Assembly (NCBI GenBank): GCA_963754875.1
Contig: CAVWHO010000008.1
Location: 352,001 to 416,000, forward strand
Source of the DNA: Nitrospirota bacterium
GTDB lineage: Bacteria > Nitrospirota > UBA9217
Direction of reading: 5' to 3'
DNA length: 64,000 nt
Under the pieces are notes generated by a model. It had not been told where the DNA came from. It searched no databases and saw only the letters and a program-made list of their open reading frames with translations. Both the position numbers and the translations under genes were made by a program. Positions 4,708 to 64,000 of the stretch are shown here, piece by piece; the first letter of the stretch is position 1; each line of letters begins with the position of its first letter.

Positions 4708-4723
4708 GTAATCTCCCCGTGGA

Positions 4724-6295: not shown

Positions 6296-6305
6296 GATGA
6301 TCTCC

Positions 6306-7181: not shown

Positions 7182-7189
7182 AGCTCCTC

Positions 7190-8726: not shown

Positions 8727-8833
8727 CCGGTTACAGACACATAACCAACAAAGGTCTCTCCGAGGCTTCGCGGACGCTTTGATGTCCCTGCACGTCGCAA
8801 GCGCCAGTGAATGGCACCGGGCAAGGATGGATG

Positions 8834-9406: not shown

Positions 9407-9500
9407 GTTTCCATCCTCCCCGTGGTCTTCGTCCGGCTGTTTCCGGCCTGGACTTGTCCGGCCCTGGGGTCTAAAGTGCTCCACCGCCTGCAATTGCGCT

Positions 9501-26090: not shown

Positions 26091-26101
26091 GGTGGTATCC
26101 C

Positions 26102-32900: not shown

Positions 32901-33016
32901 GTTGCAATGAGAAAACTGAACATCATCGACGAACTGAAACCTATTTGCCAGATCTTGTGATGTTCTTCCCTGCATAAGTTGCCGTGATCCGCATGTCTTC
33001 CTGGTGATATAAACTC

Positions 33017-34831: not shown

Positions 34832-34954
34832 GGAGTTAGCTCGTAAGAAGCCCCATCATCGCAGGGGTCCCACTACGTATTATCCCGAGAGCCTTTTTCA
34901 GATCATTTTTTGTTGAAATAAACGTCATACTGTTTTACATTGGAACAGGAGAAA

Positions 34955-37513: not shown

Positions 37514-37614
37514 TCACATCGCAGCGGTATATCGGCCCCGGAGAGCAGGCATTCCTCTGTGATCGAAGATGTTATAGCTCTCGAGATGAGCTATGTTTTA
37601 ATGAGTGAGAAATT

Positions 37615-39343: not shown

Positions 39344-40249
39344 TTATTTACTTTCCACTTCCCTCATGAAGATCTGGACGCGATTGTTGCCGCGATCGGC
39401 GATGAAAACATGACCCTTTCCATCAATACAAATATCAGCTGGATAGAAAAGTTCTCCTTCTTTCCATCCCATCTTCAGCTTATTTCCTTGAAAAGAGCCA
39501 TCTCTGCCAAAAACGACGACCCCTCCACCGTTCTGATCAACAAGATAGATGTTTTTCCGATCTACGGCAAGAGCGGTTGGAAAGTTGACGTACGACTTCA
39601 ATCCCGATACGAGCGGAGAAAAAACACCGGCATCGGGCGCTGCAGTATATAGCGAACCCGTCACGCTATTCAGAAGAAAAACCGTACCCTGTGGATCAAC
39701 GGCCACGTCGGAGAAAAAGCCTCCAACCTGAGGATACTCTATCTGTTTCTGGAACTTCCCCTCCGGGCTCAGAATCAGTACCCGTGAGGATGCGATATCC
39801 AGAATATACAGATTATCTTTCGCATCGATTGCAAGACTTTTAGGAATCCACGATGGCCCGGGTCCAGGCAGGCCGAGCGCTTCGACATAACCCACGAACT
39901 CCCCTGTGGGTTTCAGGTGTACAATTCTATGCTGTCTTCCATCCAGCACGAAGATGTCCCCTTGGGTGTTTACTCGAATGCGCTGAGGATAGATGATTTG
40001 CGGAATTTTTATTTCCGTCCCCGCAACCATGACCTCGTCCTGCATGGTATATTGCTGGAGACGCCCGTGACCCGTATCGGCAACAGTGAGAACGGATTTA
40101 TCGCTGCAGCCCACGCCCTCCGGCATGCTGATTCCCCCATCCTTTGCGTCTTTATAGAGGGACACTTCATGTCTTAATGTCATCAGCTCAACGGCCTGCG
40201 CAGTAAAAGGAATCAGGAAGAGTATTATCATTGTTAAGATTTTCATCAT
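39344..40249 (-). CDS. Secreted NHL-repeat beta-propeller protein (last gene of the nanowire locus)
   Basis: Signal peptide ending AQA; NHL units VADTGHGRL, PTALAVD and FIADRGNNRVQIF. Confidence 0.88.
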   Translation of the reverse strand: MMKILTMIILFLIPFTAQAVELMTLRHEVSLYKDAKDGGISMPEGVGCSDKSVLTVADTGHGRLQQYTMQDEVMVAGTEIKIPQIIYPQRIRVNTQGDIFVLDGRQHRIVHLKPTGEFVGYVEALGLPGPGPSWIPKSLAIDAKDNLYILDIASSRVLILSPEGKFQKQIEYPQVGGFFSDVAVDPQGTVFLLNSVTGSLYTAAPDAGVFSPLVSGLKSYVNFPTALAVDRKNIYLVDQNGGGVVVFGRDGSFQGNKLKMGWKEGELFYPADICIDGKGHVFIADRGNNRVQIFMREVESK

Positions 40250-40253
40250 GGCA

Positions 40254-41522
40254 TCACCTCTCATGTGATGTGTGGCATTGCACACACATTTCCGTAGCTG
40301 TTGGATAGAGGAGCATATGTTGATTCGTTGTGCCGTGGGGGTCGTGGCAGCTTCCGCACTGGACGTAGGAGTTCGGATTCCGCGGGTCAATGACGCTTGC
40401 TCCTACAGGATGCGTAGAATGTTTTTTGAAATCATGACACGTTCCGCACAGCTCGAGCATGGTTGGTTGCACGAAGAGAAATACATTGTCGGAAGCATGC
40501 GGCGAATGACATGCGGTGCAGTCGCCGTCATTAACCGGCTGATGTTTTGTCGGAGATCGCTTCTGGCGCTCGATTGAATCTGCGTGACATTCACCGCAGA
40601 GGTCGGCCAGTTTTTTTCTCAGAAGCGGTTTTTCTTTTGATGCATGCGGGTTATGACAATGGAGACATCCCGTCTTGTCCACGACAGGCCAATGGATCCG
40701 GTTCTTGTTGAGAACATCGTTGACCATATTGCTGTGGCACCCTTTGCACAACTCGATTCCGGCTTTTTTGGTTGCGAACGGTGTCGGCGAAGTTGGAGAC
40801 TCATGGCACTGGCCGCACATCTTGCTGGCTACGGGCGGGTGAACGTTTGCATAGAGCACGCCCGCCCTGTCGGAACCGTGAGGATCATGGCAAGTCGTGC
40901 AACGTGCTTTTGCCACCGGATAGTTCATGTGCTGTCTTTTGAACGTCGGCACATCTGCCTTATGGCACGTAAGACAGAGCACCGGGACGGCTTTCTTCAA
41001 CAAAGATACGGACTCTGCAGAGCCATGCGGGTTATGACAGTTAAGGCATCCTTTCTCGACAGGGCTATGCTTGAATTTTACGCTTTTTACCCTTTCAGCC
41101 ATGTCCTTGTGGCACCCGAAACAGAGATCGTTCCCCGACGCCAAGAGGTTAAACCTGTATTTCGAAGCATGGGGATCGTGACACTTTACGCAATTCCCCT
41201 CCGACACGACTTTATGGGCACTAATAATTTTCTTGGGAATCACATTTTTATGGCACTTGAAACATATCTTGTTCGTGTCCGCTTCCAGCATCTTACCATA
41301 GGCAGACGCGTGGGGATTATGGCAGCCTGTGCATTCACCGGCCTTCACGGGCGTATGAACAAAAGGCTGCTTGAGCTTATCCTGAAAATCAACATGGCAA
41401 GTCAGGCAATTCTTACCTTGTGCCCCCGGCTTGAGCCGAAATTTATTTTGCTCGGCGCCCGCCGTCGCAGTGGCGCCAAAAACACATATTGCGATAAGCG
41501 CAAATAACTGCCAGTATCGCAT
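40254..41522 (-). CDS. Periplasmic 16-heme cytochrome c (paired CxxCH repeat family)
   Basis: 16 CxxCH motifs counted, with HxPV...CxxCHxPH...LCxxCH repeats and a signal peptide. Confidence 0.95.
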   Translation of the reverse strand: MRYWQLFALIAICVFGATATAGAEQNKFRLKPGAQGKNCLTCHVDFQDKLKQPFVHTPVKAGECTGCHNPHASAYGKMLEADTNKICFKCHKNVIPKKIISAHKVVSEGNCVKCHDPHASKYRFNLLASGNDLCFGCHKDMAERVKSVKFKHSPVEKGCLNCHNPHGSAESVSLLKKAVPVLCLTCHKADVPTFKRQHMNYPVAKARCTTCHDPHGSDRAGVLYANVHPPVASKMCGQCHESPTSPTPFATKKAGIELCKGCHSNMVNDVLNKNRIHWPVVDKTGCLHCHNPHASKEKPLLRKKLADLCGECHADSIERQKRSPTKHQPVNDGDCTACHSPHASDNVFLFVQPTMLELCGTCHDFKKHSTHPVGASVIDPRNPNSYVQCGSCHDPHGTTNQHMLLYPTATEMCVQCHTSHER

Positions 41523-41539
41523 CTTCACACCTTCTTTTT

Positions 41540-43510
41540 TCATCGTTTTTCTCCTATATGACAATCCTCACACGACCGTGCAGCAAAAGGAGGATGGATA
41601 TTTTCTTTGAACAGATTTGGGTCCTTCGAGCCATGCGGATCATGACAGGTCCGGCAATCTATGACGGAAGCTTTGATGCCGATGTGGGCCTTCGCAAATG
41701 CACTGTCGTTCAGGTCATGGCAATCGCCGCATAATGCCGGGACCGGCTCGGTATTCAGTGCAGTTTCCTTTGAAAAATGCGGCAAATGGCATTGCAAACA
41801 ATCGCCTGTTGCCGGGGGATGGGCCCGGCCGGCCTCAAGCTTTGACTTGATTTCTTTATGACAGACCAAGCACAGATCGGGGCTTTGTGCCAGGAGAAGT
41901 TTGGACAGCTTCGACTTATGGGGGTTGTGGCACTTCGTGCACTGACCCGCCATCACCGGAGCATGCTTGCTAATCCCGGACTGGAGTCCTGTGTTTAACT
42001 TATCATGACACTGCATGCAGAGTCTATCCTGCTTGTCCACGATCATTCCGTCGATATCACTTGCGTGGGGATCATGGCAGATAAGACACTCTTTACTGGC
42101 GAATGGGGGATGGTTGGAGCCACCGACGGCTTCCTTCATGAAATCCCCGTGACACTGCAAACACACCTCAGAACCCGGTGCTTTCAGAAGTTTTTCCTCA
42201 GACGACCCGTGAGGGTTGTGGCATTTGTTGCAGGCAGCCTGTTCAACGGGCTTATGGGTATTGGATTTAGCGAATTTCCGTTCCTCATCAGTATGGCATG
42301 AATAGCATATCTTGTCCATCCTGTCGTTCAGCATGCCGACGAAGTTCGTACCATGAGGGTTATGGCAAGACAAGCACATGTCCTGAGCAAACGGCGGATG
42401 GACATCTTTAGCCTTGGTCAGTTCCTTCGTTTTTACATGGCAGGTGAAGCAGAGCTCCGAGCCTGTGACATTCAGGAGGTTCTTATTCTTTGCTGCATGG
42501 GGTGCATGGCATGACAAACATCCTTTCCCCTCGTTGAGTGCGGGATGTTGAAAGATCGGTTTCCCTTCCTGATGGCAGCTGTAACAAAGCTTGTTGCCTT
42601 TCTCCAAGAGTAGTTTTGGATTCTCCGAGGTATGCGCGCTATGACAGGAAAGGCACATGCCGCTTTTGAAGGGCATATGTTCCTCACTGCCGCCGCCCTT
42701 GAGTGTCGTTGCATCATGGCACTGCATGCAGAGATCTCCGCCGCTCTGGGTCGTTCCGAACGGCGTCTGTGACGTTGCTGGGTTATGACATGCATCGCAA
42801 CTCATGGATACAAGGGGGTTGTGAACACTCGTTTTCAGGAGCTTCGGCTCAGACGATGAATGAGGGCTGTGACAGATCGAACAGCGTTTGCTGTCTACAG
42901 GGTATCCGCCATGCGCTTTTTTAAATGATGAGGCGCCGCTGTTATGGCAATCCAGGCAGAGAGCCGGGTCAGCCTTGACGAGAAGGTTATCCTGGTCAGA
43001 ACTGTGGGGCACATGGCAGGCTGTACAACCGTCGGTCTTCAATACTTTATGGATGACTTTACCCTCGTAATTCTCCTTAGCGTGGCACTGGGTACAGACC
43101 GCCGTACCTTCCTCTTTGAGAAGATGTTTCCACGGGGAGGCATGGGGGTTGTGGCAATTTGTACACAGCCCCTTCTGCACCGCTGTATGCACCTTTGCCT
43201 TGTCCAACCCTATTTTCCCTTTGTCGTGACATGTATAACAGAGAGCATTCCCGCGTTTCTTCAGGATCAACGCGGGTACTCTGCCGTGCCGAAGGTGACA
43301 AGCTTCGCATTTTTTTTCTTTCACGACAGTGTGGATCTCTTTCATGCCGAAGTATTTGTCAGAAAATTTTTTGTGGCAATCAAGACAGTCTTTCTGCGCA
43401 AATTTGAACTGAGCGGCCGCCGTACCAGCTAGAGCGATCGTGGCCAGCAGCAAAAATATGCCAAATAGAGAAATTTTCATCTTTGAATGTATGGTAGACA
43501 TGGTCCTCAA
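41540..43510 (-). CDS. Periplasmic 26-heme cytochrome c (paired CxxCH repeat family)
   Basis: 26 CxxCH motifs counted; signal peptide ending AAAQ. Confidence 0.95.
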   Translation of the reverse strand: MRTMSTIHSKMKISLFGIFLLLATIALAGTAAAQFKFAQKDCLDCHKKFSDKYFGMKEIHTVVKEKKCEACHLRHGRVPALILKKRGNALCYTCHDKGKIGLDKAKVHTAVQKGLCTNCHNPHASPWKHLLKEEGTAVCTQCHAKENYEGKVIHKVLKTDGCTACHVPHSSDQDNLLVKADPALCLDCHNSGASSFKKAHGGYPVDSKRCSICHSPHSSSEPKLLKTSVHNPLVSMSCDACHNPATSQTPFGTTQSGGDLCMQCHDATTLKGGGSEEHMPFKSGMCLSCHSAHTSENPKLLLEKGNKLCYSCHQEGKPIFQHPALNEGKGCLSCHAPHAAKNKNLLNVTGSELCFTCHVKTKELTKAKDVHPPFAQDMCLSCHNPHGTNFVGMLNDRMDKICYSCHTDEERKFAKSNTHKPVEQAACNKCHNPHGSSEEKLLKAPGSEVCLQCHGDFMKEAVGGSNHPPFASKECLICHDPHASDIDGMIVDKQDRLCMQCHDKLNTGLQSGISKHAPVMAGQCTKCHNPHKSKLSKLLLAQSPDLCLVCHKEIKSKLEAGRAHPPATGDCLQCHLPHFSKETALNTEPVPALCGDCHDLNDSAFAKAHIGIKASVIDCRTCHDPHGSKDPNLFKENIHPPFAARSCEDCHIGEKR

Positions 43511-43521
43511 AATGGTCCTCC

Positions 43522-45300: not shown

Positions 45301-45345
45301 TATTTCTCCTCACTTTTCATGCTCCCCGCAACTGAGCAAAGTAAA

Positions 45346-48300
45346 TTATCTCGAACAAACCGGCTGTGCACAGGGATGTCCGGTCCGCCAATCACTCCTT
45401 ACCAGGTAGTCATCATCTTGACCGTACTGCGTACCATCTCCGCAACCATCGCGCTTGCCGTCTTGATATTCCCCAATCCGAACAGGGTGACCCCATCGTC
45501 TCCTAGGCTTCGAGCTCTCTGAGGACCAGATGATCCTTTTACTGGTTTTTTCAATCAGCATCACGGAAAAAGTAACTTTCGGGCTCCTCCATTGTTCATC
45601 CCGATAGTCCAGGACTTTCCCCGTTAGGAATAGATCGGCATTGATATTTTCGATGAGGATATCGATATCGGAAAGTGAAGCTCCTTCCTCCATGATGGTC
45701 CTTACGCTGAGAAGTTCCTGCCTCACTATAGCCGGATCGATTACGACAAAATCCTTCCGTTGCGCCAATTCTTTCACGAATTGCAGCATGACGACCTCTC
45801 CGGCGCCAGGTGTCTTACTTTGGTTGAAAAAAGGTATGGCCGCTATGGTGCGCCGTTTATCTCTGTTGATTATGCTCAGACTGTGTACTTTGTAGCGCCC
45901 GAGGGAGGCATTGGCAGGGCTCGACAGTTTCACATCCATCGCCTCAGCGGCCTCGACACCGTCATCTCCTGGCATGAGAACAGTAATGATTGCACTTCGA
46001 CTGCCCGCCTTGATTATAGCGGGATTCGGCGTGGCCGAGTAATCTAACGGTTTCTTCGTTGTACTACTGATCGTAAACGGAATAATCACATCCTTGCCCG
46101 ACAATGCCGACGATTCAATAGCAATAATTGCCGTTTTCGCTTCCCTGATGACGCGCTGATTTTCGGAAAGAAAGGATATTGTGGGCATGGGCGTGGTATT
46201 CACGATGGTATAGGTATGTGTTGTGACGCTTCCCAACACACTGTCGGCAGACTTCAACAGGCTTACTTCGATGGTCTTGTTGTCATCGTAGATGCCGTGA
46301 TTTACAATCTCAAGCTCGATGGTCTTTTCAGTCTCGCCCGGGGCGAAGGTCAGGCTGCTTCCCGCCATCGCGTAATCCTTCCCCTTGATTGCCGTCCCCC
46401 CGGTCACCGCGTACTCCACCGTCACCGGCTTGCCGCTCGCTGCGCCGAGCGCCACCTCGAACCGGGACTGCCCTACCTTGTCATCGCCCCGGGATTCCTT
46501 TCGGCTAAAGGACACCGTCGGCGCCGGATCGCTGTCGACGATGGTCACCGTGCTCTCTGTGCTCTTTCCCTGCGTCGCGTTCGTGGGGGCTCCCATGCTC
46601 ACCACGACCGTCTTGTCGTCTTCGTTGATGCCGTTGTCCGTGACATCCACGGCAATCGTTGCGCTCTTTGTTCCCGCCTTGATCACGACCGGGCTCGCCG
46701 TAATCGTATAGTTGCCGGGAGTTTTCGCCGTTCCACTCACCTTGAACGGCACCGTCACGTCCTTGCCCGACAGGGCCGACAATTCGACAGCGATGGTCGC
46801 CGGTCCTCCGTTCTCCTTCGCCTGCTGGCTCGTTGACGTAAACGTCACTGCGGGCGCCGGGTCCGCATCAATGATGGCATAACTATGCATGGTCGTGCTT
46901 CCGAGAACGGCCCCTTTCGGATTTTTGAGGCCGACCTCAATGGTCCTGTTATCCGCATTCAGCCCGTCATCCCTGATCCCAAGCTCGATGGTCTTTACCG
47001 TTTCCCCCGGGGCAAAGGTCAGGGTCTGGGCACCGTCCTTCAGCGTGTAGTTCGTCTCGCGGACGGCGGTGCCACCCGTGACGGCATATTCTACCGTCGT
47101 CAACTTGCCGCTCGCTGCGCTTAGAGTCACCTCAAGCCGGGCGGGACTTACCTTCTCGTCCCCGTACGAACTGGGGAGCGTGAATGACACCGTGGGCATG
47201 GGCGTGGTATTCACGATGGTATAGGTATGTGTTGTGACGTTTCCCAACACACTGTCGGCAGACTTCAACAGGCTTACTTCGACGGTCTTGTTGTCATCGT
47301 AGATGCCGTGATTTACAATCTCAAGCTCGACGGTCTTTTCAGTCTCGCCCGGGGCGAAGGTCAGGCTGCTTCCCGCCACCGCGTAATCCTTCCCCTTGAT
47401 TGCCGTCCCCCCGGTCACCGCGTACTCCACCGTCACCGGCTTGCCGCTCGCTGCGCCGAGCGCCACCTCGAACCGGGCCTGCCCTACCTTGTCATCGCCC
47501 CGGGATTCCTTTCGGCTAAAGGACACCGTCGGCGCCGGATCGCTGTCGACGATGGTCACCGTGCTCTCTGTGCTCTTTCCCTGCGTCGCGTTCGTGGGGG
47601 CTCCCATGCTCACCACGACCGTCTTGTCGTCTTCGTTGATGCCGTTGTCCGTGACATCCACGGCAATCGTTGCGCTCTTTGTTCCCGCCTTGATCACGAC
47701 CGGGCTCGCCGTAATCGTATAGTTGCCGGGAGTTTTCGCCGTTCCACTCACCTTGAACGGCACCGTCACGTCCTTGCCCGACAGGGCCGACAATTCAACT
47801 GCGATGGTCGCCGCTCCTCCGTTCTCCTTCGTCTGCTGGCTCGTTGACGTAAACGTCACTGCGGGCACCGGATCGCTGTCGACGATGGTCACCGTGCTCT
47901 CTGTGCTCTTTCCCCGCGTCGCGTTCGTGGGGACTCCCATGGCCATCACTACCGTCCGGGCCTCTTCGTTGATCTTATTGTCGACCGGGCTTACCATAAT
48001 CGCCGCGCTTTTCGTTCCCGCCTTGATCATGACCGGGCTCGCCGTAATCGTATAGTTTCCGGGAGTTTTCGCCGTCCCGCTTACCGTGAACGGCACCGTC
48101 ACGTCCTTGCCCGACGGGGCCGACAATTCGACAGCGATGGTCGCCGGTCCACCGTTCTCCTTTGCCTGCTGGCTCGCTGCAGTGAAAGCCACAGAAGGCA
48201 TGGGTGTCGTATTCATGATAGTATAGCTATGCGTGGTTATCGCGCCTATCACGGCATTCTTTGCACGTTTCAAGCTCACGACGACTATTTTATCGTCATT

Positions 48301-51219
48301 ATTGATGCCATGATTAACAATACCCAGTTCTATGAATTTGTTCGTTTCGCCGGGGGCGAACGTCAGCGAATCTGTCTTGGCTGTATAATCTTTTCCGCTA
48401 ATAGCCGTGCCACCTGTGAACGCGTACTCCACTGTTACCGGTTTTCCGCTCACTGCCCCGAGCGACACCTCCAGCCGGGCCGGGTTCGTCTTCTCATCCC
48501 CGCTCGAAACCGCGTGCATGAACGCCACCGCGGGCATGGGCGTGGTGTTCACGATAGTATGGCTGTGCGTCGTAGCTCCCCCCAGTATGGCGTTTTTTGC
48601 GCTCTTCAGGCTCACGTCCACCGTCTTATTGTCGTCGTAGATCCCATCGTTCTTGATGTCGAGCTCAATCTCCTGTTTTGTCTCGCCCGGGGCGAAGGTC
48701 AGGCTGCTTCCCGCCATCGCGTAATCCTTCCCCTTGATTGCCGTCCCCCCGGTCACCGCGTACTCCACCGTCACCGGCTTGCCGCTCGCTGCGCCGAGCG
48801 CCACCTCGAACCGGGCCTGCCCTACCTTGTCATCGCCCCGGGATTCCTTTCGGCTAAAGGACACCGTCGGCGCCGGATCGCTGTCGACGATGGTCACCGT
48901 GCTCTCTGTGCTCTTTCCCTGCGTCGCGTTCGTGGGGGCTCCCATGCTCACCACGACCGTCTTGTCGTCTTCGTTGATGCCGTTGTCCGTGACATCCACG
49001 GCAATCGTTGCGCTCTTTGTTCCCGCCTTGATCACGACCGGGCTCGCCGTAATCGTATAGTTGCCGGGAGTTTTCGCCGTTCCACTCACCTTGAACGGCA
49101 CCGTCACGTCCTTGCCCGACAGGGCCGACAATTCGACAGCGATGGTCGCCGGTCCTCCGTTCTCCTTCGCCTGCTGGCTCGTTGACGTAAACGTCACTGC
49201 GGGCGCCGGGTCCGCATCAATGATGGCATAACTATGCATGGTCGTGCTTCCGAGAACGGCCCCTTTCGGATTTTTGAGGCCGACCTCAATGGTCCTGTTA
49301 TCCGCATTCAGCCCGTCATCCCTGATCCCAAGCTCGATGGTCTTTACCGTTTCCCCCGGGGCAAAGGTCAGGGTCTGGGCACCGTCCTTCAGCGTGTAGT
49401 TCGTCTCGCGGACGGCGGTGCCACCCGTGACGGCATATTCTACCGTCGTCAACTTGCCGCTCGCTGCGCTTAGAGTCACCTCAAGCCGGGCGGGACTTAC
49501 CTTCTCGTCCCCGTACGAACTGGGGAGCGTGAATGACACCGTGGGCATGGGCGTGGTATTCACGATGGTATAGGTATGTGTTGTGACGTTTCCCAACACA
49601 CTGTCGGCAGACTTCAACAGGCTTACTTCGACGGTCTTGTTGTCATCGTAGATGCCGTGATTTACAATCTCAAGCTCGACGGTCTTTTCAGTCTCGCCCG
49701 GGGCGAAGGTCAGGCTGCTTCCCGCCATCGCGTAATCCTTCCCCTTGATTGCCGTCCCCCCGGTCACCGCGTACTCCACCGTCACCGGCTTGCCGCTCGC
49801 TGCGCCGAGCGCCACCTCGAACCGGGCCTGCCCTACCTTGTCATCGCCCTGGGATTCCTTTCGGCTAAAGGACACCGTCGGCGCCGGATCGCTGTCGACG
49901 ATGGTCACCGTGCTCTCTGTGCTCTTTCCCTGCGTCGCGTTCGTGGGGGCTCCCATGCTCACCACGACCGTCTTGTCGTCTTCGTTGATGCCGTTGTCCG
50001 TGACATCCACGGCAATCGTTGCGCTCTTTGTTCCCGCCTTGATCACGACCGGACTCGCCGTAATCGTATAGTTGCCGGGAGTTTTCGCCGTTCCACTCAC
50101 CTTGAACGGCACCGTCACGTCCTTGCCCGACAGGGCCGACAATTCAACTGCGATGGTCGCCGCTCCTCCGTTCTCCTTCGCCTGCTGGCTCGTTGACGTA
50201 AACGTCACTGCGGGCACCGGATTCGTATTAATAATGGTATAAGTATGCACCGCGGTACGCCCTAATAGCGCATTCGTCGGGTTCTTGAGGCTTACCTCGA
50301 TAGTCTTGCTGTCCGCATTCAGACCGTCATTAAGGATGTCTATATTTATGTCCTTGACAGTCTCGCTGGGTGCAAATGTCAATGTCCCGTCCTGCAATTT
50401 ATACTTGATGCCGCGGACGGCGGTACCGCCCGTTACAGCATACTCCACGGTCACTGGCCGAGCATTAACCGAACTGAGCGCTACCTCGAGTCTCGCAGGG
50501 CTTGTCTTATCAGTGCCGCTGGAACGCTTCAGAACAAAATTTACGATATTCTCACGAAAGTCCGTTCCCAGGCTCGGGGAGCGGTACACGGACCGCGGTT
50601 TGAAATCGATCCTTCCGCCCTCGCCATCGGCCGTTTTTCCCGCCGCAAACGTTTCCAGGGACCCTGAAAGCTGACGGACTGCTTTCTGCAACAGTACTTT
50701 GGGGTCATGAATCACGCCGAGTCCAAGAATCCCGGGAGAATCGTCACCTGCCAGGCCCACGCTATCGGCCCACAATACACGAGGATTATCTGTTGCGGCC
50801 AGGAGCCTGACTGCCATGGAAATCCGGGGAACGCCGTCTGCATTGTAGGACTCCACCGTGGCAAGGAGAATGGCGTCGGCCCCAACCTCTCTTTTGAATG
50901 CCTCAGCAGTAGCTGCATCCACCCCCATTGAAGGGCGAAAACGATGATTCGACAGGATCGATTTAATCGGCGCTTCATCGAGGACGTCGACCCGCTGCGA
51001 TTTCAATTGTTGCGTCAGTGCTTGCCGGATATCTTCTTCAGGAATGGCCGAATTACTCCTGTTTTCAATAGGAAGGACGACGATGCGAAGTCTGGTTGCG
51101 TCGTCTGGCACGATCTTCCCTGCCGGTCCTTTCACCATCGAACACCCGGTCAGTAACACCAAACCGGTAAAAAAAACGGCTGCAATCGTTCTATTTAAAA
51201 AGCTTTTTGATAAGATCAT
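45346..51219 (-). CDS. Giant lipoprotein: CsgG/TolB-N-like domain, 14 Calx-beta domains, second CsgG-like domain (OscG-like by position); probable +1 frameshift near 45508 with true stop at 45399-45401
   Basis: Lipobox LLTGC. Paired domains IVVLPIENRS...LWADSVGLAGDD and IAAIPFFNQS...IWSSES. Fourteen units of about 110 aa with VTVEYAVTGGTA/LTFAPGET or VTVPFxVSGTA. Confidence 0.85.
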   Translation of the reverse strand: MILSKSFLNRTIAAVFFTGLVLLTGCSMVKGPAGKIVPDDATRLRIVVLPIENRSNSAIPEEDIRQALTQQLKSQRVDVLDEAPIKSILSNHRFRPSMGVDAATAEAFKREVGADAILLATVESYNADGVPRISMAVRLLAATDNPRVLWADSVGLAGDDSPGILGLGVIHDPKVLLQKAVRQLSGSLETFAAGKTADGEGGRIDFKPRSVYRSPSLGTDFRENIVNFVLKRSSGTDKTSPARLEVALSSVNARPVTVEYAVTGGTAVRGIKYKLQDGTLTFAPSETVKDINIDILNDGLNADSKTIEVSLKNPTNALLGRTAVHTYTIINTNPVPAVTFTSTSQQAKENGGAATIAVELSALSGKDVTVPFKVSGTAKTPGNYTITASPVVIKAGTKSATIAVDVTDNGINEDDKTVVVSMGAPTNATQGKSTESTVTIVDSDPAPTVSFSRKESQGDDKVGQARFEVALGAASGKPVTVEYAVTGGTAIKGKDYAMAGSSLTFAPGETEKTVELEIVNHGIYDDNKTVEVSLLKSADSVLGNVTTHTYTIVNTTPMPTVSFTLPSSYGDEKVSPARLEVTLSAASGKLTTVEYAVTGGTAVRETNYTLKDGAQTLTFAPGETVKTIELGIRDDGLNADNRTIEVGLKNPKGAVLGSTTMHSYAIIDADPAPAVTFTSTSQQAKENGGPATIAVELSALSGKDVTVPFKVSGTAKTPGNYTITASPVVIKAGTKSATIAVDVTDNGINEDDKTVVVSMGAPTNATQGKSTESTVTIVDSDPAPTVSFSRKESRGDDKVGQARFEVALGAASGKPVTVEYAVTGGTAIKGKDYAMAGSSLTFAPGETKQEIELDIKNDGIYDDNKTVDVSLKSAKNAILGGATTHSHTIVNTTPMPAVAFMHAVSSGDEKTNPARLEVSLGAVSGKPVTVEYAFTGGTAISGKDYTAKTDSLTFAPGETNKFIELGIVNHGINNDDKIVVVSLKRAKNAVIGAITTHSYTIMNTTPMPSVAFTAASQQAKENGGPATIAVELSAPSGKDVTVPFTVSGTAKTPGNYTITASPVMIKAGTKSAAIMVSPVDNKINEEARTVVMAMGVPTNATRGKSTESTVTIVDSDPVPAVTFTSTSQQTKENGGAATIAVELSALSGKDVTVPFKVSGTAKTPGNYTITASPVVIKAGTKSATIAVDVTDNGINEDDKTVVVSMGAPTNATQGKSTESTVTIVDSDPAPTVSFSRKESRGDDKVGQARFEVALGAASGKPVTVEYAVTGGTAIKGKDYAVAGSSLTFAPGETEKTVELEIVNHGIYDDNKTVEVSLLKSADSVLGNVTTHTYTIVNTTPMPTVSFTLPSSYGDEKVSPARLEVTLSAASGKLTTVEYAVTGGTAVRETNYTLKDGAQTLTFAPGETVKTIELGIRDDGLNADNRTIEVGLKNPKGAVLGSTTMHSYAIIDADPAPAVTFTSTSQQAKENGGPATIAVELSALSGKDVTVPFKVSGTAKTPGNYTITASPVVIKAGTKSATIAVDVTDNGINEDDKTVVVSMGAPTNATQGKSTESTVTIVDSDPAPTVSFSRKESRGDDKVGQSRFEVALGAASGKPVTVEYAVTGGTAIKGKDYAMAGSSLTFAPGETEKTIELEIVNHGIYDDNKTIEVSLLKSADSVLGSVTTHTYTIVNTTPMPTISFLSENQRVIREAKTAIIAIESSALSGKDVIIPFTISSTTKKPLDYSATPNPAIIKAGSRSAIITVLMPGDDGVEAAEAMDVKLSSPANASLGRYKVHSLSIINRDKRRTIAAIPFFNQSKTPGAGEVVMLQFVKELAQRKDFVVIDPAIVRQELLSVRTIMEEGASLSDIDILIENINADLFLTGKVLDYRDEQWRSPKVTFSVMLIEKTSKRIIWSSESSKPRRRWGHPVRIGEYQDGKRDGCGDGTQYGQDDDYLVRSDWRTGHPCAQPVCSR
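46181..50222. repeat. Nested near-identical intragenic duplications (offsets 1011 nt and 2349 nt)
   Basis: 46331-47873 matches 48680-50222 (offset 2349). The segment starting at 46181 matches that starting at 47192 (offset 1011). Shadow ORFs in the track recur at the same offsets. Confidence 0.95.
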
Positions 51220-51760
51220 CGACAGCCTTTTCCGTTATATCGTTCATAAGCGTTCCTCCTCCGCCGAAAAGCCGGTCCGTGACGCCTATGCCGCCCTGAG
51301 TTGAGGAAGCAGACCATATAATTCTGCCCGTCTGCGTTTCAATCATCTGCAGGTTCAAGGAAATAGCGTTCGAAGCGGCGGAGCCGGATCTCACTTCGCC
51401 ATACTCTTTCACGACGCCCGTTATCACTGCATCCACCTTAACAACGCTTGAGAACTTTATTGCCTCATCGGTGGAGGGTGCCGTCGGATCGGCCAATCCC
51501 AGTCGCGTGATACCCCGCTTCACTTCACCGACAGGGATTACGTAGAAAGCGCCGGTAGCCAAAAGCCTGGTCATTAAAACTTCCCTCACCCGGTCACTAG
51601 CGCTCTGCTCCTTCGACTGGTTAGCAAGGGGCATAACCGCAACATTCTGGATCACCCCAAAGTCCATGTTCGGATCCCGAAAGACGCCGGCACTTTTGTG
51701 AGCGCATGCAGTCAGCGAAATAGCCATTAATAGCAGCACAATAGTTCTCTTGACATTCAT
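51191..51760 (-). CDS. CsgG/GNA1162-like lipoprotein (OscF-like by position)
   Basis: Lipobox LTAC, VAVMPLAN, VDAVITGVVKEY and MIETQTGRIIWSAS. Confidence 0.82.
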   Translation of the reverse strand: MNVKRTIVLLLMAISLTACAHKSAGVFRDPNMDFGVIQNVAVMPLANQSKEQSASDRVREVLMTRLLATGAFYVIPVGEVKRGITRLGLADPTAPSTDEAIKFSSVVKVDAVITGVVKEYGEVRSGSAASNAISLNLQMIETQTGRIIWSASSTQGGIGVTDRLFGGGGTLMNDITEKAVDDLIKKLFK

Positions 51761-51780
51761 TACTCCCCCCCCCTCTTCAG

Positions 51781-54051: not shown

Positions 54052-54065
54052 TCTCCTGTTCTATC

Positions 54066-55478
54066 CTATCGTTCACCCATCATGGCCACCCATGAAGGAG
54101 AACCACTGACATCAATATCGGAAATGCTTTTTCCGCTGATCAGATTGACGACCGTGAGGACCTTCCGGTCGGGAATAAGCATATAGAGATTATCATTATC
54201 GTTATCGATCGTCATGAAATTTACCCATCCCTTCGTCGGGATGTATTCTACAGGAGTAACCGCAAGTGGGTCATACACCGTGACCACTGAGTCATATTTT
54301 TTACCCACGTAAATGCGATCAGTCCGGGTATCCACCTTGATAGAGCTCACTCCCAGTCCTATAAAATCCCGACGCACCAGAGAGAAGGACTCGGGGTTGA
54401 TCGTATAAAGGTACGGATAAGATGCGTGGATTACATAGAGCCGGTCCCCGTTGCGATTGAACTGTCCTCTCAAAGGTTCGGGCCCTGTCGCAATCGTTCC
54501 CATGACTGCCCTGCCGGCGATATCGATAACCGATATATTGTCGGAATGGTTGTTAAAGACATAAGCTTTCCTGCCGGTTTTTTCGATCAGAATGGAGCAT
54601 GGCCGGTTACCTACGGGGATCCTGGTTACCTCCATCCGAAGTCCGGTGTCAATGATGCTTACCATATTGGAACCGGAATCCACCGCCAACAGTGTGCGTC
54701 CGTCCGGCGTGAGGACCAGTTCTTGGGGTTCATCTCCCCGGATCAGCACGATCCTGTCCAGGACAGTCCCGTCTGCGACGTCGATCACCTCAATTGCGTC
54801 TTCATCGCTCAATGCCGCATATGCCATCTGATGCGTTTGGTCAACAACCATGCCTCGGGGGCCGGCTCCCGTAGCGATTACCCCTATTGCCTCCATTTTC
54901 ACCTTATCGAACACCGTGATCGTATTCAAACCAACGTTCGTAACATAGCCGGTAACTCCAGGGACGGGAGTCGGAGGGGTGTATATGAAAAACGCCGGAC
55001 TGAAATGGTATCCGTCAGGTATGGATTCACTAAATTTTAATTTGAGGGAAAGCACATATGCCTTTTTCCGCTCCACCTTGAACATAAATTCCCTCTTGCT
55101 CGGCGCCTCAGGGACCAGGAGAGCGGCTTCGCCGTTCGCCGTTTCGAGCGAGGCTTTCTTGGTCTGGAAAAAGAATCCCTGGTAGGATCCCACCGGCAAC
55201 CGGCCCTGTGCAATCAACCGCTGTCTTGCCATATCGTTTTTATTAAAATCGCTCACCAGGAGCGCAAGCGGGAATGCGACGCCGTCGTCCCGCACAGCCG
55301 AGATCCCTTCAAAAGAAAATTTGAGCCGCTCATCCGGCTTCTCAAATGGCTGGACATAGAGAAACACTTCCCCTTCATCCTCAAGCGCTGGCTCAGTTTT
55401 TAGCGGGAGCGATTGACATCCTGTAACTACCAGCAAGGCAACAAAAAGAATTTTTTTTATCCAGGCAGCCGTCTTCAT
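54066..55478 (-). CDS. YVTN/YncE beta-propeller lipoprotein (OscD-like by position)
   Basis: Lipobox VTGC; repeats GYVTNVGLNTITVFD, IPVGNRP and YVFNNHSDNISVID. ATGA-coupled to the upstream cytochrome. Confidence 0.88.
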   Translation of the reverse strand: MKTAAWIKKILFVALLVVTGCQSLPLKTEPALEDEGEVFLYVQPFEKPDERLKFSFEGISAVRDDGVAFPLALLVSDFNKNDMARQRLIAQGRLPVGSYQGFFFQTKKASLETANGEAALLVPEAPSKREFMFKVERKKAYVLSLKLKFSESIPDGYHFSPAFFIYTPPTPVPGVTGYVTNVGLNTITVFDKVKMEAIGVIATGAGPRGMVVDQTHQMAYAALSDEDAIEVIDVADGTVLDRIVLIRGDEPQELVLTPDGRTLLAVDSGSNMVSIIDTGLRMEVTRIPVGNRPCSILIEKTGRKAYVFNNHSDNISVIDIAGRAVMGTIATGPEPLRGQFNRNGDRLYVIHASYPYLYTINPESFSLVRRDFIGLGVSSIKVDTRTDRIYVGKKYDSVVTVYDPLAVTPVEYIPTKGWVNFMTIDNDNDNLYMLIPDRKVLTVVNLISGKSISDIDVSGSPSWVAMMGER

Positions 55479-56764
55479 GGGAGAACTCCTGTGTGACACT
55501 TATGGCAGAGCGTATCCTGATTGAGGGCGAATCGACTTTCTGTTATTCCGTCATAGGCCATTTGTGCTTCAAGTTCGGTGCGTCCCTGCCCATAGGGTTG
55601 ATAGGGTTGGCCTTGCTGCGCATACAATCCGTTGGAAACGATGAAGTCCGTTGTCGTATTCCATCGCGTAGCCCCGTCCCAACCCGAAGCATGCGCCCGG
55701 TGGCACGTGAGACACATCACCTGGGCGTTTACGGAATCCGGTCCGACGAGATAGGAATCATCGTTCTTCGCATGGGATTTGAGCACGGCATAGCTGGCGG
55801 TTCCCTCTTCAAAGGGGACGAGGGAAAGGTACGACATGGTCGAGATCCCGGTGAGATCGCCCGTTTTAAGGTAAGCGTTATAGTTGCCGCTGTCCGTGAA
55901 ACCGAGCTTGGCAATGCTTCCTACGGGATGAATTGTCGCTGTTGTCGATGTCGGGGAGCTGAAAATCTTGTGCATCGTCGTATGGCAGTTCTGACACCAC
56001 TCGGACATTCCCGACCCATAAGCCACCCGGGTCTGCGTTACCGCCTCGGATCTGTTGTACACATCCGGCGCAACCGCAGCAGGCGGGTCGTACGTAAAAG
56101 GAATGCTGCCAGGAAGGGATTTAGGCTGATAATTTTCCCCACCCAACATCCGATAGACGCCTACGGAATAACCGATTTGCGGGTCGGGACTGCTTGCATA
56201 GGAACCCGAGCTTTGAATTGCGCTGCCGCTCGTGGTGATCGTACCATCGACATTTCTGCGATATTGGCCGTGGGGATCGTGACAGCTGATACAAGCGAGG
56301 CTCGTCGACGGATAGGTCCCCTCGGGAGCCGTTAAATTTGTCACATCGGCCATATAGGAATAATCGGCAGCCGTGATGTTGTGGCCGTGTCTTTCCCCGT
56401 GGCTGTAGAGCGGCGCCTGCGTTGCATCGGGGACCCAGAAATAGTCCTTTTTGAGCCATCCAAAATCACCGCCCGGGGTAATCTGCCGGGGCGGCAGACC
56501 GGGGAGCAAATCGGAGGAAGCGGTACTCACAAAGAAATAGGTCGGGCCGACGGCTCCCGCTCGCTCGTGGCAATTGAGGCAGACCGAACTGGCATCAGAG
56601 GCGATTAAGAGGCTTTTCGAGGACAGATCAGAACCATTATGCATGGAGTGGCAGGCATCGCAAGGACCAACGCCGCCATTGTGAAAAGCAAAGACTGCCC
56701 CTGCAAACGTAAGCATGACCGTGAGGAGCGTCAGTGCAACGAGTGCCGTTTTTCGGAACTTCAT
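55475..56764 (-). CDS. Hexaheme OmcS-family cytochrome, second paralog
   Basis: AFA/FHNGGVGPCDACHSMH, TPGGDFGWLKK, GHNI, CISCHDPHG, VAYGSGMSEWC and CLTCHRAHASG; six CxxCH. Confidence 0.92.
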   Translation of the reverse strand: MKFRKTALVALTLLTVMLTFAGAVFAFHNGGVGPCDACHSMHNGSDLSSKSLLIASDASSVCLNCHERAGAVGPTYFFVSTASSDLLPGLPPRQITPGGDFGWLKKDYFWVPDATQAPLYSHGERHGHNITAADYSYMADVTNLTAPEGTYPSTSLACISCHDPHGQYRRNVDGTITTSGSAIQSSGSYASSPDPQIGYSVGVYRMLGGENYQPKSLPGSIPFTYDPPAAVAPDVYNRSEAVTQTRVAYGSGMSEWCQNCHTTMHKIFSSPTSTTATIHPVGSIAKLGFTDSGNYNAYLKTGDLTGISTMSYLSLVPFEEGTASYAVLKSHAKNDDSYLVGPDSVNAQVMCLTCHRAHASGWDGATRWNTTTDFIVSNGLYAQQGQPYQPYGQGRTELEAQMAYDGITESRFALNQDTLCHKCHTGVLP

Positions 56765-56887
56765 CAGTAGGTAAAAATTCCTCATAACCATCTGCGTGCC
56801 GCATACCAATCGCGAGCGCATTACTATACCATTGAATTGTTCACGAGAGAATAAAAAAATGCATGAGAATATATATTATAATGGCAG

Positions 56888-56921
56888 AAAAAAGGAGGGC
56901 CGGCAATCCTGTCGGCCCTCC
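56888..56921 (-). terminator. Rho-independent terminator after omcS
   Basis: GGAGGGCCGACA-GGAT-TGCCGGCCCTCC hairpin followed by TTTTTT, about 33 nt after the stop. Confidence 0.85.
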
Positions 56922-56954
56922 CGGTTTAACATAAATCTACACACCTAGCAACCA

Positions 56955-58190
56955 TTAGTCTTTTGCATGGCACTTGTTGCAGAGAGACCGCTGGTAGCTG
57001 GAAAAGGACGCCACGGTCCTGCCATAGTAGGCAGCCTGGGCTTCCGCGGCGGTCTGGCCGCGAGATACCTGCGCGAACGCGCTGTTGGTGACCATAAATT
57101 CGCTGTCGTTAAACCATCTCGTCATGTGATCGAAACCTGAGGCATGTGCACGATGGCAGCTGAGGCACATGACCTGCGAATTTGAATCCGCACCAGTATC
57201 GGGTGCGCCCAGAGCTTTGGCCTGGGTTCTAAGCGTCACCAGTGCATTCAGCTGGCCGCCTGTGCCGCCTACTTCGAACGGGACCAGTGAGTTGTATGCC
57301 GAAGCGACAATGCCGGTCATGTTGCCCGACATCTTATAGGCATTATAATTGTTGATCTGGTCGGTCGTGAACTTACCATCAGTGCTGACCGGGTGCGAAT
57401 GCTTGGTGGAGGTGCCTGAAAGCATGTCAGGATGGCAGGTCGCGCACCACTCGGACATACCGGAGCCGTAGGCAACGCGAAGCTGCGTCGAGTCGGTTTC
57501 CGCAACGTTGTAGGTGCCCGGTGCAACGGCAACAGGCGGATTCGCCGAGAAGGTAACACCACGTGAGGCATCGCCGAGTCCGCGGAGCAGACGATACACA
57601 CCGATTGCCTGGCCGGCAGCCGGCGTGGCGCTGGTGTTGTACGAGCCGGACCCGATGATCGGCGCCCCGCCCGTAGAAAAGGTCAAATTCGACATAATAC
57701 GGTTACGGCCGTGGTTGTCATGGCAGCTGTTGCAGGCGAGATTCCCGGCTGAGAACGTGCCACCAGGCGCTGTCGTGTTGATCGTATCCGGGCCAAAACC
57801 AAAGTCGCCCGCAACGATGTTGTGACCATGTGTAGAGCCAAGGTCGCTGTTTGCGGCGTTGCGTACGACAAAGAAATAATCTTTCTTCAACCATGCGAAG
57901 TCGCCGCCGGGGGTATAGTTAAGAGGAGCGACGCCCGCGGCCGGTAAGGGCCACGTCAGTTCGTGATAGCTGCCTGTTGCCGCGTTTGCGTGGCAGGACA
58001 AGCAGGTGGAACTCGGATCCCCGCCAACCAGCAGCGCGTTCGTGGTTGCACCATCTTGGCCATCGTGAATATTGTGACAACCCGTACACTCGGCGACACC
58101 GCCGCTATGGAACGCAAAACTTACGGTGCAGAGGCCGAATATAAAGGCGACCGCAACAGCAATGACAAAGCTTAATTTAACAATCTTCAT
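56955..58190 (-). CDS. omcS: Hexaheme nanowire cytochrome OmcS homolog
   Basis: Mature N-terminus FHSGGVAECTGCHNIH, TPGGDFAWLKK, GHNIVAGD, VAYGSGMSEWC, CLSCHRAHASGFD and C-terminus YQRSLCNKCHAKD match Geobacter OmcS as recalled. Six CxxCH; SD AGGAGG. Confidence 0.92.
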   Translation of the reverse strand: MKIVKLSFVIAVAVAFIFGLCTVSFAFHSGGVAECTGCHNIHDGQDGATTNALLVGGDPSSTCLSCHANAATGSYHELTWPLPAAGVAPLNYTPGGDFAWLKKDYFFVVRNAANSDLGSTHGHNIVAGDFGFGPDTINTTAPGGTFSAGNLACNSCHDNHGRNRIMSNLTFSTGGAPIIGSGSYNTSATPAAGQAIGVYRLLRGLGDASRGVTFSANPPVAVAPGTYNVAETDSTQLRVAYGSGMSEWCATCHPDMLSGTSTKHSHPVSTDGKFTTDQINNYNAYKMSGNMTGIVASAYNSLVPFEVGGTGGQLNALVTLRTQAKALGAPDTGADSNSQVMCLSCHRAHASGFDHMTRWFNDSEFMVTNSAFAQVSRGQTAAEAQAAYYGRTVASFSSYQRSLCNKCHAKD

Positions 58191-58215
58191 GAACATCCTC
58201 CTATTAAATGATGTG

Positions 58216-58294
58216 CTCCGGCAGCCCGGCCGTCCTGAGTTCAGGACCCGTAGACTTTGTGTCCCCACCTTGCGATGGGTTTACCCGTTCGGAG
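58216..58294 (-). ncRNA. c-di-GMP-I (GEMM-I) riboswitch aptamer upstream of omcS
   Basis: CTCCG-AAC-GGGTAAACCCATC-GCAA-GGTGGGGACACAAAGTCTACGGGTCCTGAACTCAGGACGGCCGGGCTGC-CGGAG: P1 CTCCG/CGGAG, GNRA-capped P2, P3 GTCCTGA/TCAGGAC. Confidence 0.9.
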
Positions 58295-58422
58295 GATTGC
58301 ATTGCATCGGCAATGCCGACAAATTGAGAAACTAACAGCTACCTCGTGCTTCTTAACGCTTTGTACTATTCTGTATTTCCTCTATCCGACGCCACCCCCT
58401 TTCTTTTTATAAGATAGTGTTT

Positions 58423-59398
58423 TCATTCGTAGGACATTCTGAAAACACTGACACCCCGCATGCCCGCCTGGATGACATAAAGATTATTGTTGCCGTCCAT
58501 GGCCAGATCAGATGGGATCACTAAATTTTGCGGATTTTTCCCGCGATAGCCGAATTCCGTAACGAAATTTAAGTTGTTATCAAAGACGGAGACAACGCAT
58601 CTCAATTTGTCGGACACTACATAGTTCCCCCGGTTGTCCGCTATGATCCCTGAAACAATGCCGAATTTCCCAGGTCCGCTGCCCGCCGCACCGAAACTCG
58701 CCATAGTACCGTCGGGAGAGAGTCGGTAGGCGCTGAAAAAAACGGGAATCGTGAACAGGATGTTTCCGTTCTTGTCCAGAGTGAAACCATCCATCTCGAC
58801 GGATCCTTCGTCCTTCTTCTTAATTTCGAGCTTCGGTGTCAGATCGTAGTTTTTCAATACTAGACCCGTTGCATCGGCAACAATGATCTTCAGGGTCCAG
58901 AGTATCGGCAAAATAAAAACGCCCTTCCCGATAAAGCATGCGGGTCGGCAAAAAATCAGCAAAACCAGCGGGCAGGTTCTTAATCTCAAAACGCTCCAGT
59001 GGTTCCGCCCGGTAGGTAGAACGGATAATTTCATACGATTTGGAATCAACTCCGCTCTTATACGAAAGAGTCAGGATATGACCCTGTTCATCAACTGCGA
59101 CATCGGCGATCAGGCCGAGTCTCATGTCATTATTAAAACGATCTATCTCGATCCCAACACTATTGAAAACGGTTAATACATTCGAGCACAAAACGTAAAT
59201 CTCATTCCTTGTCGGGTCAGCGAATACCCGTCCGCCTTCAGACCGGATGGGACCGGTTACGTCGGCAAGGGGATAAAGGAAATGGGCAGCTATAGACGAT
59301 CCGGTTGACGCTGTTGCGGAAAATGCCTGCATCAACAGACAGAGACAAACAAGAAGAGCAACCGATAACAGGTTATTTTTAAATATTCTGGTAGCCAT
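58423..59398 (-). pseudogene. NHL-repeat beta-propeller gene split by a +1 frameshift near 58893 (real lesion or sequencing error)
   Basis: ORF 58820-59398 carries the signal peptide and first blades up to FYFADTLD. ORF 58423-59049 continues LKIIVAD...GSGPGKF...PSDLAMD. Removing one base from gac-c-ctg joins them. Confidence 0.7.
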
Positions 59399-59424
59399 AT
59401 TCAGCCTCTTGCAGAAAGTTAATT

Positions 59425-59440
59425 TGCATAAGGGATGCCA
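59425..59440 (-). promoter_or_regulatory. Sigma-54 (-24/-12) promoter of the nanowire locus
   Basis: TGGCATCCCTTATGCA is GG-N10-GC, 26 nt upstream of ATG 59398. An IHF-like site AAACAAGCCATTA lies at 59468-59480. Confidence 0.7.
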
Positions 59441-60826: not shown

Positions 60827-60923
60827 CCTCACGAGCGTGTTGACATTTCCCCCTTTGTCCCTGGTAGACCCCGGGCCTGGCGCCTCTTTTGCGCTCCCTC
60901 CCCCTGGCGGAAAGCACTCTGCT

Positions 60924-63947: not shown

Positions 63948-64000
63948 GGTTACCCTCTCCTCCCTGATGCCATCAAGTTGAGGAAACACTCATCGGTCGG

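Follow-up and report, generated by a model that had tools for sequence, protein, structure and literature searches.

The closest described relative of the locus reported here is the osc cluster of Geobacter sulfurreducens, which we describe from the accessible parts of PMC13194489, PMC13712944 and PMC12977616, all summarising Shen et al. 2025. It is defined as an eight-gene block, GSU2500-GSU2493, downstream of a GSU2501-type hexaheme cytochrome (PMC12977616), and its products are reported to be needed for OmcS wire formation and to fold, export and shape the filaments (PMC13194489); OscC, OscI and OscJ correspond to GSU2501, GSU2495 and GSU2494 (PMC13194489), GSU2495 being a 26-heme protein of ~70 kDa (PMC12977616). 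OmcS has 12 histidine ligands, one of them from the neighbouring subunit (accessible part of PMC6584659). Wire formation is known for OmcS alone, and sequence models fail to identify authentic OmcS outside the genus (PMC12977616). Two further systems bear on the export parts, namely PelBC, where PelC forms a periplasmic 12-mer ring on a barrel (accessible part of PMC12141448), and the MtrAB-type conduits. Here we analyse a window of 64,000 nucleotides from a Nitrospirota bacterium (assembly GCA_963754875.1, contig CAVWHO010000008.1, positions 352,001 to 416,000 of the forward strand) which, judged by gene content and order, holds an osc-type cluster, a known system of wide occurrence that is varied here by a much longer OscG-like lipoprotein.

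An osc-type cluster in a Nitrospirota genome

The cluster occupies the minus strand from 59398 to 39344 and comprises, in this order, genes for an NHL propeller, two hexahemes, a YVTN lipoprotein, a barrel of 756 amino acids (aa), a 189-aa lipoprotein, a 1,957-aa lipoprotein open reading frame (ORF), a peptidyl-prolyl isomerase (PPIase)/SurA-like protein, a 26-heme cytochrome, a 16-heme cytochrome and a second NHL protein (Table 1). From the second hexaheme onward the genes overlap or are spaced by at most 45 bases. The single-strand run and its order agree with the original prediction, made from the sequence alone, and a recount of CxxCH motifs over the four cytochromes (16 + 26 + 6 + 6) returned its total of 54. 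Its NHL, YVTN, PPIase and CsgG-like lipoprotein calls are supported by Pfam and NCBIfam matches (LpoB/GNA1162/CsgG-like, SurA).

As reference we used one Geobacteraceae cluster (genome G429, loci L124 and L125) with the published G. sulfurreducens layout, i.e. NHL, two hexahemes with the OmcS N-terminal motif, a gene resembling spermidine synthase, one more hexaheme and the block of eight genes. Every protein of this reference has its best host-genome match inside the window, gene for gene at 33-59% identity in a one-direction best-hit search, which bears out the predicted correspondence with the osc companion cluster. The eight genes of the osc block stand in order and are accompanied by a hexaheme placed in the GSU2501-type clade (support 100 in the Shimodaira-Hasegawa-like approximate likelihood ratio test, SH-aLRT); the Osc letters D to H are assigned here by inference from gene order. 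The upstream NHL gene and a spermidine-synthase-like gene (60924-63989) are associated with the cluster, the latter displaced upstream. This displaced gene is the best match of the 1035-aa in-cluster reference gene (48% identity over 1012 aa), its homologs sit within the cluster in loci L018 and L020, and GSU2502 is annotated as spermidine synthase (accessible part of PMC10599522). The 16-heme gene of the reference cluster (L125:7190-8530) is itself split over two frames.

A sigma-54-type motif at 59440-59425 is the only minus-strand match to this pattern within 38500-64000, and of 22 related loci, 12 have this pattern close to the start of the NHL gene, versus 0.3 expected from shuffles; scans for sigma-70 promoters and terminators gave results near shuffle levels. 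Elsewhere in the window, a sigma-54 response regulator and a histidine kinase (24717-27148, minus strand) provide a candidate activator for the promoter at 59440. In Geobacter, GSU2506/GSU2507 adjoin the cluster (PMC10599522).

The arrangement is common well beyond the window. The run small lipoprotein-OscG-PPIase-26-heme is found in 29 of 34 related loci from a genome collection (8 labelled Nitrospirota, 11 Myxococcota-type and 2 Geobacteraceae), three of the others being cut by contig ends and two differing, and because the same order recurs in related loci it is far beyond chance. The host does lie outside Geobacterales, a condition that the original prediction had left as an "if": the window GlmS is 91% identical to that of a Nitrospirota genome (locus L026) versus 55% to that of a Geobacter-labelled genome, and one window protein shares its 90% identity cluster with two named proteins, both labelled Nitrospirota (an exact look-up of ten window proteins left six without a match). 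The extension of the known range that it attached to this condition is modest at best, since the cluster is common outside Geobacter (only two of the 34 related loci are Geobacteraceae) and already occurs in loci labelled Myxococcota, Desulfobulbaceae, Desulfocapsa, Schekmanbacteria, Bdellovibrionales, Deferrimicrobiaceae and other Nitrospirota. The title of Shen et al. 2025 calls the machinery widespread. OmcS homologs outside Geobacter are already in print for Anaeromyxobacter (accessible part of PMC10954620); no statement on an omcS/osc cluster in Nitrospirota was found in the accessible parts of the literature searched, which did not cover Shen et al. 2025.

The host genome encodes dsrA, dsrB, dsrC and dsrM, K, O and P, all above curated cut-offs (C19:100700-112782, locus L136), and is therefore likely to be that of a sulfate or sulfite reducer; a small ORF without assigned family follows dsrB on this contig. 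Contig C12 repeats the rpoB-tuf region of contig C11 at ~96% identity, so that a second strain or species has been binned in.

Both hexahemes carry signal peptides and match OmcS of PDB 6EF8 along their entire mature chains (E 1.2e-95 and 1.7e-124). All 38 aligned hexahemes, the two window copies among them, share twelve invariant histidines. One of these invariant residues, at mature position 16, is presumably the cross-subunit ligand of OmcS, and as all twelve are kept, bis-histidine hemes with one cross-subunit ligand would be possible in the window proteins. Full-length homology, six CxxCH and the twelve histidines place both in the OmcS family. In a quick maximum-likelihood tree of 64 hexahemes (one row, G442_O, was dropped by the trimming rule), the copy at 55475-56821 falls in a 17-row clade (SH-aLRT 100) with Geobacteraceae hexahemes of the GSU2501 type, adjacent to YVTN genes, and the copy at 56955-58268 in a 14-row clade (SH-aLRT 99) apart from the 11-row OmcS/OmcT/OmcJ clade (99). 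An approximately unbiased (AU) test on 33 of the rows rejects the joining of 56955-58268 with a 7-row OmcS/T/J group (p 0.00016, a value weakened by the fact that the group was defined after the first tree had been seen). By these trees, neither window hexaheme qualifies as a strict OmcS ortholog. The predicted OmcS and OmcS paralog therefore stand as full-length OmcS homologs and fall as orthologs. The same division applies to the predicted OmcS-type wires for extracellular electron transfer: the osc-type cluster is present but the OmcS identity was not borne out, and because OmcS alone is known to make a wire and this identity is not assignable from sequence, wire formation is here something that we infer.

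The OscG-like lipoprotein, its Calx-beta array and the putative export parts

The distinctive feature of the locus, overlooked by the original prediction, is the Calx-beta expansion of the OscG-like lipoprotein. The ORF encodes a PelC-like domain, 14 Calx-beta domains (residues 224-1790) and a second PelC-like domain, giving a protein of ~1,940 versus ~380 aa, and its N and C domains are 38% and 42% identical, respectively, to the 392-aa reference gene. Both domains of the compact two-domain OscG (~370-410 aa, a length observed here among relatives rather than published) are present, with the array sitting in the linker between them. The 14 units are of 110-114 aa and of three domain types. 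An internal repeat of 1,616 bp at 98.2% identity marks a recent duplication, with 23 codons differing across the duplicated block, and no other ORF of the host genome matches the Calx-beta domains of the array. Contigs of one comparison run (X1) bridge both array junctions (50230-50934 and 45605-46173), so the PelC-Calx fusion is not an assembly join; the unit number of 14 is that of this assembly alone. No description of a lengthened OscG was found in the literature searched, which did not cover Shen et al. 2025.

The Calx-beta assignment rests on Pfam (E 6e-162), on matches to NCX1 and on the fold of a two-unit family relative (634 aa, modelled at a predicted local distance difference test score, pLDDT, of 81.7), which consists of an alpha/beta domain, two immunoglobulin (Ig)-like domains and a second alpha/beta domain. 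This model matches Calx-beta with Z 16.9 and a root-mean-square deviation (rmsd) of 1.4, and its best non-Calx match is PelC (Z 15.5, rmsd 2.7, 129 aligned residues). The PelC/GNA1162/LpoB fold and a lipobox are found in both lipoproteins of the cluster, the fold of OscG being read from the 634-aa relative. In 13 of the 14 window domains K or R occupies the final acidic position of the NCX-type calcium motif, and among 128 domains of relatives 54% have K there, so that calcium stiffening may be weak; several other acidic calcium positions are kept, and one domain type is without the DD and the C-terminal DxD residues.

Long forms of OscG recur in the host family. Its N domain was matched in 20 of 63 other family genomes. 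Of the 23 matches outside the host genome 20 were examined, three on short contigs or contig ends having been left out, and 13 of these 20 loci carry Calx-beta domains at the same linker, in 2 to ~25 units (in five the gene falls into several ORFs, whose units were summed, and contig ends truncate three). Three loci have N-terminal MBG repeats instead, and four are plain (371-407 aa), two of these in the same genus. The family Calx domains have diverged to 40-65% identity, in frame, across several genera. Matches outside the family in a phylum sample (13 of 337 genomes) were all short frames of 351-442 aa, as were the OscG proteins of all ten Geobacteraceae clusters (365-413 aa); in the 34 related loci, which may overlap the family set, OscG measures 367-486 aa in 29, carries Calx-beta in two (Nitrospirota-type), has other extensions in two and is split in one. 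A search for long homologs, with 8,000 scored candidates, returned 21 proteins of 651-2,000 aa, four with internal Calx-beta domains and 17 with N-terminal repeats; the latter comprise 14 with PF00801, which we take to be PKD, and three with MBG repeats only. As one N-terminal-repeat homolog is labelled Desulfobacteria, long OscG is not confined to the host family, and in the sets examined the Calx form was seen only in the host family or in Nitrospirota-labelled or unlabelled records. The repeats of the other long forms are Ig-like but unrelated, which points towards length, and away from calcium chemistry, as what matters, and the gain of unrelated repeats at two OscG sites suggests selection for length.

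Some relatives depart further from the common pattern. A stand-alone second OscG with four Calx-beta domains (L076:7922-10453) is flanked on each side by ~8-9 kb free of further cluster genes. Long N-terminal MBG repeats lie between signal peptide and core in L084:8217-11510 and L090:4361-9112, and in L027:7539-10232 the same place is taken by an N-terminal repeat of ~96 aa without family.

The barrel at the OscE position has no match in Pfam or NCBIfam, but its AlphaFold2 model (mean pLDDT 90.1, ~28 strands by manual count from the DSSP list) is a large beta-barrel, which upholds the predicted call, with an inserted beta domain at ~265-447. In Foldseek its best match is MtrB (E 3.6e-9; template modelling score, TM, 0.40; 8% identity), a similarity of the general large-barrel kind, and the next are TonB receptors and the ushers PapC and FimD. 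The window barrel groups in a tree with those of five Calx-bearing loci (SH-aLRT 100), four other Calx-bearing loci being found elsewhere on weak branches, so that the Calx insert may have one origin or several. The small lipoprotein has PelC (9H80) as its best PDB sequence match (E 7.6e-7), and the 26- and 16-heme proteins match the DmsE decaheme model (E 3e-87 and 4e-56, respectively).

Two genes are interrupted as assembled. One extra base at 58899 splits the upstream NHL gene, a single ORF of 305-410 aa in most relatives, over two frames, and one extra base at 45509 puts the last ~30 OscG codons out of frame; read through, the products are of 324 and 1,939 aa, respectively, with normal ends. 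The base at 58899 is absent in contigs of three of four comparison runs (X1-X3) and that at 45509 in all four (X1-X4), the runs coming from two studies. The rpoB gene on contig C11 is likewise split by one-base insertions, two in number, which share with the insertion at 45509 a position at CTCGAG, the genome's most strongly depleted hexamer (observed/expected 0.54). Both frameshifts are probably assembly errors, and for this reason we consider the cluster probably intact. Miscalls at CCWGG were also considered as their source and rejected, CCWGG not being depleted and the extra bases mapping elsewhere. The original prediction was silent on both frameshifts, as well as on the spermidine-synthase-like gene, which lies outside its interval.

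Proposed working of the cluster and competing readings

On balance we lean towards a cluster that exports an OmcS-family hexaheme through the barrel and assembles it into conductive filaments, the Calx-beta array of OscG serving as a spacer arm of variable length. The tightly packed, same-strand genes would be co-transcribed from the sigma-54-type promoter ahead of them. The SurA/PPIase-like protein would chaperone the hexahemes, as proposed for OscH (accessible part of PMC13194489), and the predicted barrel would be their exit. Because PelC matches the small lipoprotein in sequence and OscG in fold, both end domains of OscG, together with the small lipoprotein, may assemble as a ring on the barrel, by analogy with PelBC most probably at the periplasmic face. 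Electrons would cross the periplasm and reach the filament by way of the 26- and 16-heme cytochromes. The array itself would be a non-catalytic arm that loops from the ring and braces or spaces it, only partly depending on calcium; the array is dispensable for the machine, because most clusters lack it. Filament formation, export and electron transfer by the window cluster are, then, functions that we infer from its genes.

Several points weigh against this scheme. The membrane side of OscG is not fixed by its fold, which also matches TraT (Z 8.8) and HpaA (Z 9.9), both presumably surface-exposed. With ~4 nm per domain, an arm of 14-25 domains is ~55-100 nm when stretched, which is long for the periplasm. 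The best fold match of the barrel, MtrB, is a conduit porin. A separate multiheme cluster of the host genome (C8:150493-160263, locus L137), with two 10-heme proteins that match the OmcA/MtrC model, one of them scoring above the curated cut-off, an unassigned protein of 432 aa and 5- and 6-heme proteins, is possibly a second route for electron exchange. The comparison runs used for the frameshifts are ~96-97% identical relatives and not the window strain, so they leave the intactness of this strain's own genes unproven. In G. sulfurreducens, lastly, an OmcS-deficient strain reduces Fe(III) oxide normally (accessible part of PMC11077965), so that the electron-transfer role is disputed even in the model organism, and heavy osc mutation is reported in electrode-adapted strains (PMC13194489).

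Alternatively, the cluster might encode a porin-cytochrome conduit, or display hexaheme monomers or short oligomers at the surface instead of micrometre wires, the barrel housing or docking the long multihemes. Besides the MtrB-like fold of the barrel and the DmsE matches of the 26- and 16-heme proteins, such a system would suit a pair of hexahemes of which one is of the GSU2501 type (function unknown) and the other lies outside the OmcS clade, and it has been suggested that the osc block could have served secretion before the origin of OmcS (PMC12977616). We nevertheless regard it as unlikely, since the similarity to MtrB is a general one that extends to ushers. The histidine at mature position 16, presumably the cross-subunit ligand of OmcS, is, moreover, kept in every hexaheme aligned, and osc is reported as needed for OmcS wires (PMC13194489). 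Far less credible is a cluster decaying in this strain, with real frameshifts and damaged NHL and OscG genes. Both breaks are present in the assembly, and heavy osc mutation under relaxed selection is reported for Geobacter (PMC13194489), but each break consists of one added base that near-identical contigs of two studies do not have, the other ten genes are without premature stop, and rpoB on C11 is split by errors of a like kind, the CTCGAG context being common to the rpoB and 45509 insertions.

The side of the membrane on which the arm lies is a question compatible with wire formation. OscG might be on the outer face, with its array acting as an adhesin-like extender that holds the export site to a mineral, a partner cell or a filament: at least three types of Ig-like repeat, repeats typical of surface proteins, have been gained on OscG, the copy number of 2 to ~25 with recent duplication is as in adhesins, where calcium-stiffened repeats have an extender role, and arrays this long fit the periplasm poorly. 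Against such a placement, the closest solved analog, PelC, is periplasmic, both array ends are PelC-like with no terminal ligand-binding domain, and stiffening may be weak with K or R at the last acidic calcium position in 13 of the 14 domains. We hold the outer face to be possible though doubtful, with a slight edge, by analogy, to the periplasmic one. Taken further, OscG in one Nitrospirota family would serve to mount Ig-like arms of tunable length, acquired on at least three occasions from different repeat families and displayed at the surface beside the exit barrel, where they would set the hold of wire or cell on minerals or partner cells; this we consider rather unlikely. Were this surface-arm reading true, adhesion and extracellular electron transfer would be joined in one machine in a sulfate-reducing lineage, and OscG would lie on the outer face, contrary to the PelC analogy. 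It seems improbable that the array has no function in itself and merely reflects a tolerated, near-neutral expansion of repeats in a linker that permits it: plain forms of 371-407 aa do occur in four of the 20 family loci, two in the same genus, and near-identical repeats expand easily through recombination, but the array adds ~1,570 residues to an exported protein, is retained in 13 of 20 loci and several genera with domains diverged to 40-65% yet in frame, and has a counterpart in the unrelated repeats gained at a second site.

Natural OscG variants with 0 to ~25 inserted domains offer both a large epitope for localisation and a length series, and the cluster marks dsrAB-bearing Nitrospirota as candidates for extracellular electron exchange.

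Flanking genes and comparison with known systems

The features of the cluster and of its upstream flank are collected in Table 1. Genes for tetratricopeptide repeat (TPR) proteins of 550-765 aa lie upstream of the cluster in loci L016, L028, L032, L033 and L042; the window TPR gene (59906-60934, 342 aa) may be shortened by comparison. The plus strand at 29790-34831 encodes a second, 1036-aa membrane/spermidine-synthase-like fusion that includes TPR and, after it, a TPR protein of 604 aa, and a third spermidine-synthase-like paralog lies at host C8:161582-164575; such pairs flank osc clusters in several relatives. Converging on the cluster end, the plus strand at 34940-38826 encodes a histidine kinase, a receiver protein and 214- and 403-aa proteins without Pfam or NCBIfam match. 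Farther away are an XrtA/PEP-CTERM-associated exopolysaccharide cluster with an UpxY-type antiterminator (2334-10394, minus strand) and a 442-aa ORF without assigned family (11775-13103).

Table 1. Features of the osc-type cluster and its upstream flank, in window coordinates.
Feature	Position	Strand	Evidence or remark
Membrane/spermidine-synthase-like fusion, 1021 aa	60924..63989	-	Pfam Spermine_synth; best match of GSU2502-position gene
TPR protein, 342 aa	59906..60934	-	Pfam TPR
Sigma-54-type -24/-12 promoter motif upstream of NHL gene	59425..59440	-	Pattern match
Upstream NHL propeller (GSU2505 position), 324 aa read through	58423..59398	-	Two overlapping ORFs; extra base 58899
OmcS-family hexaheme, omcS position	56955..58268 (probable start 58190)	-	6 CxxCH; 6EF8 E 1.2e-95
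OmcS-family hexaheme, GSU2501/OscC type	55475..56821	-	6 CxxCH; 6EF8 E 1.7e-124
YVTN beta-propeller lipoprotein (OscD position), 477 aa	54066..55499	-	TIGR02276; lipobox VTGC; 41% to reference
Large outer-membrane beta-barrel (OscE position), predicted, 756 aa	51781..54051	-	AlphaFold2, Foldseek; 33% to reference
Small PelC/LpoB-like lipoprotein (OscF position), 189 aa	51191..51760	-	Pfam GNA1162-like, LpoB, CsgG; 59% to reference
OscG-like lipoprotein, 1939 aa read through	45399..51219 (ORF as assembled 45346-51219)	-	Lipobox LTGC; extra base 45509
14 Calx-beta domain array, residues 224-1790	45850..50550	-	Pfam Calx-beta E 6e-162
SurA/PPIase-like chaperone (OscH position), 592 aa	43522..45300	-	Pfam Rotamase_2, SurA_N; 33% to reference
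26-heme cytochrome (GSU2495/OscI position), 656 aa	41540..43510	-	26 CxxCH; 55% to reference
16-heme cytochrome (GSU2494/OscJ position), 436 aa	40254..41564	-	16 CxxCH; 53% to reference
Downstream NHL propeller (GSU2493 position)	39344..40390	-	Pfam NHL; 41% to reference

With PelBC (9H80, 5T10) the window cluster shares the PelC fold, present in the small lipoprotein and in the end domains of OscG, beside a barrel gene, whereas PelBC exports a polysaccharide, has a homo-ring of single-domain PelC and is without multihemes or a Calx-beta insert. The MtrAB-type conduits likewise have a large barrel beside long periplasmic multihemes, but the window barrel has an inserted domain in mid-sequence, and the window adds ring-type lipoproteins, a chaperone, propellers and OmcS-family hexahemes. 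The Ig-like fold of the array is that of the Calx-beta domains of NCX1/CALX and integrin beta-4, here in the form of a long tandem array; unlike in these proteins and in adhesin extenders, it lies inside an export lipoprotein and its calcium ligands are partly replaced.

The two hexahemes resemble OmcS (PDB 6EF8/6NEF) in their full-length match, six CxxCH, 12 invariant histidines and mature N-terminus FH.GG, and differ from it in being only 47% and 51% identical to the reference OmcS-position gene and in lying outside the OmcS clade. The G. sulfurreducens osc cluster (GSU2505-GSU2493) has the same genes from NHL to NHL in the same order, with the 26- and 16-heme proteins and the GSU2501-type hexaheme before the propeller. 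In the window, however, the hexahemes are two versus three and include no ortholog of OmcS or OmcT in the strict sense, the spermidine-synthase-like gene is upstream rather than inside, the host is a dsrAB-bearing Nitrospirota, and OscG has grown to ~1,940 aa with 14 Calx-beta domains, compared with 365-413 aa in ten of ten Geobacteraceae clusters.

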